A DNA stretch of 64,000 bases from Parcubacteria group bacterium (GTDB taxonomy: Bacteria > Patescibacteriota > Minisyncoccia > UBA10092), in NCBI GenBank assembly GCA_016186325.1, contig JACPLW010000002.1:1485-65484 (forward strand), in the 5' to 3' direction. Below, piece by piece: positions 62,986-63,912 of the stretch (position 1 is the stretch's first letter; each line of letters opens with the position of its first letter). The translations under genes were made by a program, and so were the position numbers. Below the pieces are notes generated by a model. That model was not told the DNA's origin. It made no database searches and was given only the letters and a program-made list of their open reading frames with translations.

Positions 62986-63912
62986 ATGGACCTAACGAAT
63001 AAATCAGTAATAAAAAATTTGTTAAAGAAGTATAACGCCAGACCGGAAAAATACCTTGGCCAGCATTTCATTTTATCAAAAAAAACTCTCACTTCAATAA
63101 TCGCGGCCGCGGAAATTAAAAAAGCTGACACGATTATTGAAGTCGGCCCGGGATTGGGGACATTAACCCAAGAACTTGCCAAGACCGACACTAATGTTAT
63201 TGCCATAGAGAAAGACATCCAAATGATTGAAATTCTAAAAGAAACTGTGACGGCAAATCACAAAAACATCAAAGTCATCAAAGCCGATGCCCGCCAAATA
63301 TGGCGAGGCTCGCCAGAGGCGGCCCGCCAATTATCGATGTCGGACATCGATAGTTTTGTGGATAAGATGGGGATAAGCGATGGGAAGTATCCATATAAAA
63401 TTGTGGCGAATTTACCATATAATGCAGCGACTTTTCTAATCCGCCAGTGGTTAGAATCAAATAATCCGCCAAAAATGATGGTTTTAATGATCCAAAAAGA
63501 AGTGGCGCGACGCATTGTAGCCAAACCTCCCGACTCAAACCTTCTTGGTATAAGTGTTCAGTTTTACGCCAACGCGGAAATTGTTGACTACGTAAAAAAA
63601 GAATCGTTTTGGCCCAAACCAAAAGTTGACGCGGCGATAATTAAAATTGTCCCAAAAAATCTGCAGATAACTCTACAATCGCAAGAAAAACAGAGTTTTT
63701 TTAGAATTGTAAAAGCGGGGTTTTCGAGCCCGAGAAAGCAATTAGCCGGAAATCTCTCAAAAAAACTAAGTATTCCTAAGGAAAAAATTATTTCGATATT
63801 TAAAGATTTGGGTATTCCGGAGAAAGCAAGGGCGGAAAATTTAGATCTAAAACACTGGCAAAATCTCACCTCTGAATTAAACAAAAAACGACCCGTTTCA
63901 GGCCGTCAGTAG
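62986..63912 (+). CDS. rsmA: 16S rRNA (adenine1518/1519-N6)-dimethyltransferase RsmA/KsgA
   Basis: SAM motif VIEVGPGLGTLT; NLPYN; carries an in-frame GC-rich palindromic insert (63290-63360). Confidence 0.85.
   Translation: MDLTNKSVIKNLLKKYNARPEKYLGQHFILSKKTLTSIIAAAEIKKADTIIEVGPGLGTLTQELAKTDTNVIAIEKDIQMIEILKETVTANHKNIKVIKADARQIWRGSPEAARQLSMSDIDSFVDKMGISDGKYPYKIVANLPYNAATFLIRQWLESNNPPKMMVLMIQKEVARRIVAKPPDSNLLGISVQFYANAEIVDYVKKESFWPKPKVDAAIIKIVPKNLQITLQSQEKQSFFRIVKAGFSSPRKQLAGNLSKKLSIPKEKIISIFKDLGIPEKARAENLDLKHWQNLTSELNKKRPVSGRQ

Follow-up and report, generated by a model that had tools for sequence, protein, structure and literature searches.

The 64,000-nt window analysed here (the whole stretch of DNA, in which all positions below are numbered) is AT-rich DNA from a Parcubacteria-group bacterium of the candidate phyla radiation (CPR), and its ksgA/rsmA gene contains, in frame, a 33-nt GC-rich insert composed of nested palindromes. 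The gene product has the hallmarks of KsgA: an RrnaAD domain (Pfam PF00398, E = 1.6e-54), the GxGxG and NLPY motifs, and full-length likeness to solved KsgA structures, residues 8-299 aligning to 6ifs and 7v2l at E values of about 1e-40 (9e-41 for 6ifs, the B. subtilis KsgA). The GxGxG (G54, G56, G58) and NLPYN (N142-L143-P144-Y145) motifs are invariant in our alignment of ksgA orthologs, and the catalytic motifs of the protein are intact. A Parcubacteria-group metagenome-assembled genome (MAG) encodes the identical KsgA protein. The locus is organised as follows.

62986-63912, plus strand: ksgA/rsmA coding sequence, 308 aa, intact, host of the 33-nt insert; assigned from its open reading frame (ORF) and its Pfam and structure matches
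63289-63297, plus strand: left copy of a 9-nt direct repeat, GCCCGCCAA, the native Ala-Arg-Gln codons; read from the sequence
63298-63330, plus strand: 33-nt in-frame insert ATATGGCGAGGCTCGCCAGAGGCGGCCCGCCAA (IWRGSPEAARQ, 11 codons), including the right copy of the direct repeat at 63322-63330
63301-63315, plus strand: inner hairpin TGGCGAG-g-CTCGCCA, that is TGGCGAGgCTCGCCA, with core GGCGAG-S-CTCGCC; likewise from the sequence
63318-63328, plus strand: palindrome GGCGG-c-CCGCC, in which the end of the insert joins native GCCCGCC
63329-63355, plus strand: family-D palindrome AATTATCGATGTCgGACATCGATAGTT, with a perfect core at 63332-63352; a palindrome across orthologs
63355-63387, plus strand: module C (FVDKMGISDGK), in the same loop, indel-polymorphic, with core GATAAGATGGGGATAA at 63361-63376

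The GC content of 63290-63349 is 0.63, against about 0.35-0.40 over most other ksgA sequence; values of 0.63-0.73 for the palindromic DNA compare with a median gene GC of about 0.39. Within the insert, GGCGAGGCTCGCC at 63302-63314 extends to TGGCGAGgCTCGCCA. CCGCC at 63291-63295 forms, with the GGCGG of the second palindrome, the outer stem of a nested hairpin with the layout CCGCC-aaata-TGGCGAGgCTCGCCA-ga-GGCGG. Folding of the 78-nt segment gives z = -4.6 for DNA and z = -3.6 for RNA, and 0 of 200 shuffles fold as well. The insert is placed one base 5' of the extended D palindrome and three bases 5' of its perfect core, and positions 63298-63357 encode the peptide IWRGSPEAARQLSMSDIDSF within the ksgA frame. 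With at most one mismatch, GGCGAGSCTCGCC occurs three times in the window, where 0.06 matches are expected.

An earlier note on this DNA had proposed a GC-rich palindromic in-frame insert in ksgA, with a palindrome like that of an insert in a metallo-beta-lactamase (MBL)-fold gene. We recovered every sequence feature it named, including the MBL-gene palindrome, GGCGAGCCTCGCC, at 10641-10653; the note had, however, taken the insert and the family-D palindrome as one unit, whereas the lineage-specific insert proper is only the 33 nt at 63298-63330. Because the same ksgA, insert included, is found in four independent Logan assemblies and one NCBI MAG record, we rejected an assembly artefact as its source.

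An AlphaFold2 model of the protein has a mean predicted local distance difference test score (pLDDT) of 84.8 but falls below 50 at residues 109-134, which lie between strands 95-99 and 137-142, and all three modules (the 33-nt insert, D and C) are therefore in this low-confidence loop. The loop is situated between the motifs that bind S-adenosylmethionine and NLPYN.

We gathered about 170 orthologous loci and compared them codon by codon from ADARQ to NLPYN. An empty site has the form GCC CGC CAA | (C/T)TA T.. (for example L001, L085 and L095) and an occupied one the form GCC CGC CAA [ATA TGG CGA GGC TCG CCA GAG GCG GCC CGC CAA] (C/T)TA T..., which is longer by exactly 33 nt and has GCCCGCCAA at either side; the copies at 63289-63297 and 63322-63330 are spaced by 33 nt, and empty-site orthologs have one. 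Carriers fall into five lineages: the window itself, L165, L166, L084 and the group L081-083/L129/L161-164. The sister lineages L001, L085 and L095 are without the insert, to the exact base. The earlier note had held that KsgA orthologs have no insert at this position, which is true of distant proteins (the alignment with B. subtilis KsgA has a 13-residue gap there, and more distant Parcubacteria have neither the 33-nt insert nor the D palindrome), but four related lineages besides the window carry it at the same codon. In a KsgA tree built without the variable loop, with 300 bootstrap replicates, the carrier L084 pairs with insert-less L095 (87%), insert-less L085 pairs with the carriers L081 and L129 (91%), and carriers are monophyletic in 0 of the 300 trees. 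We accordingly rejected a single origin followed by simple vertical descent.

Where present, the insert is 30-33/33 identical between carrier genes that are themselves only 70-75% identical. Between the window and L129 it is identical at all 33 positions, in genes 74% identical overall and 61% identical at third codon positions, and it is the best-conserved 33-nt stretch of ksgA in that comparison. In four comparisons its third codon positions are identical at 11/11, 11/11, 10/11 and 10/11, against 0.54-0.62 for whole genes; of the nine substitutions, seven hit first positions and alter the amino acid, and in three carrier lineages the substitutions fall mostly in the hairpin loop and spacer. 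Since third positions are kept while substitutions are mostly non-synonymous (G>S, G>C, E>K, A>T and SP>PS in the protein), conservation acts at the level of DNA and not of protein. The core GGCGAG-S-CTCGCC has three copies in the 64 kb and none elsewhere in about 0.9 Mb of related loci.

One of these copies is in the MBL-fold gene, in a second in-frame insert.

10633-10662, plus strand: 30-nt in-frame insert CCGCCGGAGGCGAGCCTCGCCAAGGGCGGG (PPEASLAKGG) in the MBL-fold gene, with the same core and nested architecture

This insert is present in the window and in L176 and absent from L177 and L178; orthologs of the gene are mostly 195-215 aa long, against 240 aa in the window. The empty site already has GGCGAGGCTCGCC at the junction of two older hairpins, between which the insert lies. 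An exact match of 15 nt links the insert to the reverse complement of the empty site, whereas the same strand matches over only 6 nt, and its central base is flipped from G to C. The MBL insert originated as an inverted copy of its own surroundings, and as read from these alignments it has the signature expected when template switching duplicates a local sequence in inverted form. The 21-nt architecture GGCGAG-S-CTCGCCA-RR-GGCGG has been inserted in two unrelated genes and is polymorphic in both. L165 and L178 are the same genome, which carries the ksgA insert without the MBL insert, so the presence of an insert at one locus varies independently of the other. The ksgA insert runs colinear with the empty site of the MBL gene (13 + 8 nt exact), 52 kb away; against its own empty-site flanks its matches are weak, with alignment scores of 14-15.

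The MBL-fold gene has further GC-rich additions. Enclosing the 30-nt insert, at 10618-10700, is an older GC-rich segment made of two hairpins (RPKGA..RLASSNEAAK), where the solved homologue TM0207 has residues 58-73 instead, and a GC-rich C-terminal tail, SPYGGSPAGREQS (11170-11208), is present in only some orthologs.

The family-D palindrome beside the ksgA insert is, judging by its distribution, older than the insert and separate from it. Its perfect 21-nt core, TATCGATGTCgGACATCGATA, stands at 63332-63352, and 34 of 41 distinct orthologs have a palindrome with at least 10 of 12 symmetric pairs at the same ksgA codons; as orthologs with an empty insert site are among them, D is not part of the insert. 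The remaining seven orthologs have lost the palindrome, and some others have two inverted D copies or palindromes of 17-25 bp. Model KsgA proteins, like more distant Parcubacteria, are without it. The arms vary between orthologs (CTATTGATGTC, GTATCGAAGTC, TTATGGGTTTC, ATATAGGTGTC, TTACCCGGTGTC, TGATTGATTCC and others) while staying complementary: in a 27-sequence alignment centred on the best symmetry axis, which favours pairing (yet 35 of 41 passed the filter), 93.8% of cells are paired, against 32-45% in slid controls, and 11 of the 12 pairs have changed on both sides. G-T mismatches (8) are as common as A-C mismatches (6), which indicates that both strands count and points to DNA rather than RNA. 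The centre, usually TC-S-GA, flips between copies with the same arms (GTCgGAC in L001, GTCcGAC in L081), as does the loop, which is CGA in L098, L165 and L166 and TCG at window positions 59145 and 60398. Such features mark a palindrome of the DNA, visible to both strands, and not a one-strand RNA.

D copies also occur away from ksgA.

59145-59165, no strand: D palindrome TATTGATTCTCGGAATCAATA, 1 nt after a uvrD-like ORF and overlapping the 3' end of a convergent 359-aa ORF
60396-60420, no strand: D palindrome ACTATTGATTCTCGGAATCAATAGT, part of a longer inverted repeat that borders a GC-rich stretch
43414-43509, no strand: intergenic mosaic of a C-like sequence (minus strand, 43414-43429), GGCGAGGCTTGCC (43451-43463) and a D palindrome (43485-43509)

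TATYGAT-N7-ATCRATA matches the window four times, where 0.07 matches are expected. In this repeat census all the relatives listed in the earlier note exist, far above chance, and its 59145-59165 copy was rightly placed; some coordinates shift, the copy given at 43466 being at 43487-43507 and that at 60407 at 60398-60418. The three copies outside ksgA (43485-43509, 59145-59165 and 60396-60420) are at gene 3' ends or no more than about 80 nt from them. D copies recur near ksgA in related genomes, and the 25-mer at 60396-60420 is found identically at L109:2310-2334, near the ksgA of a related genome, although the KsgA proteins of the two genomes are about 60% identical.

Two readings of D as a regulatory site were rejected. 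An operator for the adjacent TrmB-family regulator, or for another dimeric factor, was dismissed as the main explanation because the variants within the genome are symmetric copy by copy (TATCGAT..ATCGATA versus TATTGAT..ATCAATA), as expected of intrastrand pairing or copying and not of independent half-sites. A mimic of 16S helix 45 for KsgA autoregulation fits neither the loop orientation, which is not conserved, nor the copies at unrelated intergenic sites.

Identical D palindromes TATTGATTCTCGGAATCAATA in the same orientation, at 59145-59165 and 60398-60418, bracket the single 359-aa ORF (59144-60223, minus strand, no Pfam match) like the ends of a cassette. Beyond the right-hand copy lies a segment of about 1.2 kb (60430-61620) that reads much more GC-rich than the AT-rich genome and contains overlapping ORFs; on the left it is bounded by the D palindrome, itself enclosed by a longer inverted repeat, CCCACCAAAaTTTAC...GTAAAcTTTGGTGGG, at 60372-60435. 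The two minus-strand ORFs tested in this segment gave no Pfam match and the segment gave no Rfam match; foreign DNA and an RNA gene that has escaped recognition are both possible readings.

Module C is itself present or absent among ksgA orthologs. Its 16-nt core GATAAGATGGGGATAA has a reverse-complement copy with one mismatch at 43414-43429, where 0 are expected, between a UPF0102 gene and an aminotransferase gene. This copy adjoins the GGCGAGGCTTGCC hairpin and a D palindrome, so that the three motifs found in ksgA form a differently ordered, intergenic C-A-D mosaic.

Further GC-rich palindromic inserts interrupt ksgA orthologs in frame at several positions (for example CCTGCCTGCCGGCAGGCAGG, TCCCCCACCCTTTgaaAAAGGGTGGGGGA and TCCGCCAGAGGCGGATCCGCCTCTGGCGGA). 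In L084 there is an additional insert of 12 nt, ACTGGCGGACAA; its first nine bases and the TCCGCCA next to them together make up a palindrome. The direct repeat measures 9 nt at the ksgA insert, approximate at the MBL insert and absent from the other ksgA-ortholog inserts. GC-rich perfect hairpins number 38 in the window, against 6.0 in dinucleotide shuffles. On these comparisons, palindromic in-frame inserts appear to be general in this clade. Across the loci L001-L166, the peptides PACRQAG, PHPLKKGG, PPSLKLRRAG, SARGGSASGG and NSDAQRGRSSDRKRR are each inserted in a scattered subset of lineages.

We lean towards interpreting the modules as non-adaptive palindromic DNA, made, perfected and flipped by template switching at hairpins, lost by slippage, and kept where it is in frame in a tolerant loop; this seems to us somewhat more probable than otherwise. 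The loop, taken to be a mutation-tolerant one at the protein surface, would then be composed of three layers: an old 21-27-bp family-D palindrome inherited across an Azambacteria-like clade, the indel-polymorphic module C, and, youngest, the 33-bp GC-rich nested hairpin CCGCC..TGGCGAGgCTCGCCA..GGCGG with its flanking 9-bp direct repeat. Hairpins would stall or mislead replication, and short-range template switching would copy neighbouring or similar GC-rich sequence, inverted or direct; the same process would create and enlarge palindromes, homogenise their arms in a way that mimics compensatory evolution, and flip their loops. Slippage between the flanking direct repeats would remove the insert precisely. 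In coding DNA the survivors would be only those that are a multiple of 3 nt, stop-free and in a tolerant loop, and the insert would be translated as a disordered 11-residue extension without a function of its own, and so be neutral. Template switching is documented to make stems perfect, to change several bases at once in a compensatory way, to homogenise arms and to invert spacers, coding DNA included (PMC8794818, PMC8604942). Two of these traits are seen in D, namely pair changes on both sides (11/12) and inversion of centre or loop among copies that share their arms. Reverse-complement copying of neighbouring sequence accounts for the MBL insert and for the 12-nt insert of L084, and for the ksgA 33-mer only weakly.

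Several observations weigh against this interpretation. No single local donor accounts for the ksgA insert, whose best match is the MBL locus 52 kb off. That lineages apart in the tree share an insert with 30-33/33 identity is explained by the spread of a discrete element, or by recombination, no less well than by precise loss on repeated occasions. The persistence of D throughout the clade could result from selection on structure and not from mutational bias. Finally, no transposase was identified in the 64 kb and about 6.5 kb downstream, where no systematic search for one was made.

Some of these points would be met if the insert were a discrete miniature mobile element, similar to repetitive extragenic palindromic (REP) sequences, MITEs (miniature transposable elements with inverted repeats) or GC clusters, and moved by a trans-acting enzyme that acts at the base of existing hairpins and duplicates 9 bp of target; we regard this as rather unlikely. 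It would explain the 9-nt direct repeat that flanks the ksgA insert, its patchy, non-monophyletic distribution at one site, its 33/33 identity across genes 74% identical, and the occurrence of the same 21-nt architecture in two unrelated genes, polymorphic in both and varying independently between ksgA and MBL in the one genome of L165 and L178. Both coding insertions and the intergenic copy, moreover, adjoin another hairpin. The MBL insert is nevertheless better explained as a local inverted copy, the other palindromic inserts of ksgA orthologs are without target duplications, and three core copies in 64 kb with none elsewhere in about 0.9 Mb of related loci are few for a mobile family. At 30-33 nt the inserts are also below the size that we assume for MITEs, at least ~50 bp, and no transposase has been identified, though none was systematically sought. 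Nor do they have the GTAG or CGTC tags of REPs (PMC3733652).

Selection on the hairpins as nucleic-acid structures, above all on D, is in our estimation unlikely. Such a structure might be an element of the ksgA mRNA, a terminator-like 3'-end hairpin or a DNA hairpin bound by protein; E. coli ksgA is reportedly autoregulated at the level of translation. The strong covariation across the clade would be expected of it, as would the usual TC-S-GA centre, the position of the other three window copies at or near gene 3' ends, and the identity of a 25-nt copy between genomes whose KsgA proteins have diverged to about 60% identity. A one-strand RNA is, however, hard to reconcile with an orientation that is not kept (centre C or G, loop CGA or TCG) and with G-T mismatches no commoner than A-C, and the palindrome has been lost in 7 of 41 orthologs and doubled in others. 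No copy is followed by a T-run. We rejected an intrinsic terminator inside ksgA, as a terminator scan flagged none and the hairpins have no T-run on their 3' side, and a known RNA family, as the whole window gave no Rfam match at gathering thresholds and, with E values of up to 10 allowed, the surroundings of the insert and the region at about 59.9-62.3 kb returned only noise. Template switching yields the same covariation without selection (PMC8794818).

That D is a conserved functional DNA hairpin serving as a landing pad for hairpin-directed micro-insertion of GC-rich mini-hairpins into housekeeping genes is an idea that we consider distinctly unlikely; if it were true, CPR bacteria would have a built-in way to remodel the surface loops of their proteins, and the D hairpin would itself be a cis element of a novel type, sited within coding sequence. 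We give very little credence to an adaptive role of the 11 additional residues in the KsgA of this clade, such as making a new contact with the 30S subunit. In its favour, the insert is in frame, stop-free and retained in several lineages, but its substitutions are mostly non-synonymous with third codon positions conserved, sister lineages do without it, the predicted loop is of low confidence, and the DNA is palindromic and recurs in non-coding sequence. A phage origin was rejected as well: the pattern GGCGAG-S-CTCGCCA-NN-GGCGG matched one conserved gene in five viral contigs of ~62% GC, seemingly unrelated, and the D consensus gave no match to viral sequences.

Other repeats are scattered through the window. 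A second family of GC-rich nested hairpins, CCCGCCTTCGTCCCGCCTCGGCGGGACTTCGGCGGG, has members at 19862-19901, 61142-61181, 22387-22427, 24454-24478 and 7727-7760; one pair is 93% complementary over 40 nt at a distance of 41 kb, and one copy abuts a tRNA-Gly gene. A 148-nt direct repeat (22296-22443 and 24361-24508) is 96% identical between copies 2 kb apart, each of which holds a perfect 29-nt palindrome, ACAAAAATAGCACC(T/A)GGTGCTATTTTTGT. A 64-nt repeat (50150-50214 and 50855-50918; 84% identical, 704 nt apart) includes the palindrome ATTACGGA...TCCGTAAT. The palindrome TGTTTCACGTGAAACA, which we take to resemble the parS consensus of ParB, has clustered copies at 41302-41335 and 42963-43020, flanking the ORF at 42032-42850. 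The window has 15 tRNA genes, among them two pairs of near-duplicate tRNA-Val genes and a tRNA-Ile whose anticodon is TAT. Just beyond its end, a 152-aa minus-strand ORF without a Pfam match (L167:1743-2201) shares a few bases with the 3' end of ksgA; in the relatives L161 and L165 its place is taken by a plus-strand gene.

These findings show that essential, slowly evolving genes of CPR bacteria (Patescibacteria) accumulate tiny palindromic inserts that are translated as protein loops. Such inserts inflate protein length, create spurious low-complexity "motifs" and disturb alignments, with consequences for annotation and phylogeny. For the inference of RNA structure, a palindrome in coding DNA gives covariation of the textbook kind, perhaps in the absence of a selected structure. 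Insertions in rRNA genes are a known trait of CPR genomes; palindromic in-frame inserts in genes are, to our knowledge, not, and full-text searches naming CPR, Parcubacteria or Patescibacteria turned up no description of them.

Each family of elements with which we compared the inserts (GC clusters, Rickettsia palindromic elements, and REPs with their bacterial interspersed mosaic elements, BIMEs) fails on at least one defining feature, be it host or location, size, extragenic position or end tags. REPs and BIMEs are alike in being GC-rich imperfect palindromes of 20-40 nt that cluster with other short motifs in variable order and orientation, as the motifs do in the mosaic at 43414-43509, but the ksgA and MBL copies are inside coding sequences and their ends (ATATGGCG...CGCCAA and CCGCCGG...GGCGGG) have no GTAG or CGTC tag. 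REPs are associated with RAYT transposases. They are extragenic and mostly have one of the two tags at one end (PMC3733652). A MITE would have terminal inverted repeats, a target duplication, a length of about 50-500 bp and a related parent insertion sequence; the ksgA insert has a palindrome and a 9-nt repeat, but is 33 nt long and has no known parent element. Template-switch mutations share with the inserts the copying of adjacent reverse-complement sequence, the homogenisation of arms and the inversion of spacers, also in coding DNA (PMC8794818, PMC8604942); the described cases are mostly multinucleotide substitutions or single events, whereas here the process would have built multi-layer inserts of at least 30 nt, at many positions in housekeeping genes and throughout a clade.

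The closest analogues are the GC clusters of yeast mitochondria and the Rickettsia palindromic elements (RPEs). RPEs are in-frame palindromic repeats in unrelated housekeeping genes that are translated and compatible with the fold of the host protein (PMC10969869), and the 33-nt ksgA and 30-nt MBL inserts are likewise palindromic, in frame and absent from close orthologs. An RPE unit is, however, about 100-150 bp long and has a conserved peptide specific to its family, whereas the inserts here are nested hairpins of 12-45 nt whose peptides differ (IWRGSPEAARQ and PPEASLAKGG) and whose substitutions are mostly non-synonymous. The yeast clusters are mostly intergenic but also form in-frame, polymorphic inserts in var1, with terminal direct repeats that have been read as target duplications (PMC8811140). 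They resemble the present inserts as short GC-rich palindromes in an AT-rich genome, polymorphic for presence in a coding gene where they stand in frame, and in merging and shuffling into new clusters (PMC8811140). They differ in host, the inserts being in the chromosome of a CPR bacterium (the analogy is one of features), in their direct repeats, which are AG or TAG in yeast and 9 nt here, and in that the sister MBL insert is demonstrably a local inverted copy. The present inserts gave no hint of ribozyme activity or of translational bypassing. The ksgA and MBL inserts represent a bacterial counterpart to mitochondrial GC clusters and RPEs, and a system in which the origin and spread of hairpin DNA can be followed in small, AT-rich genomes.

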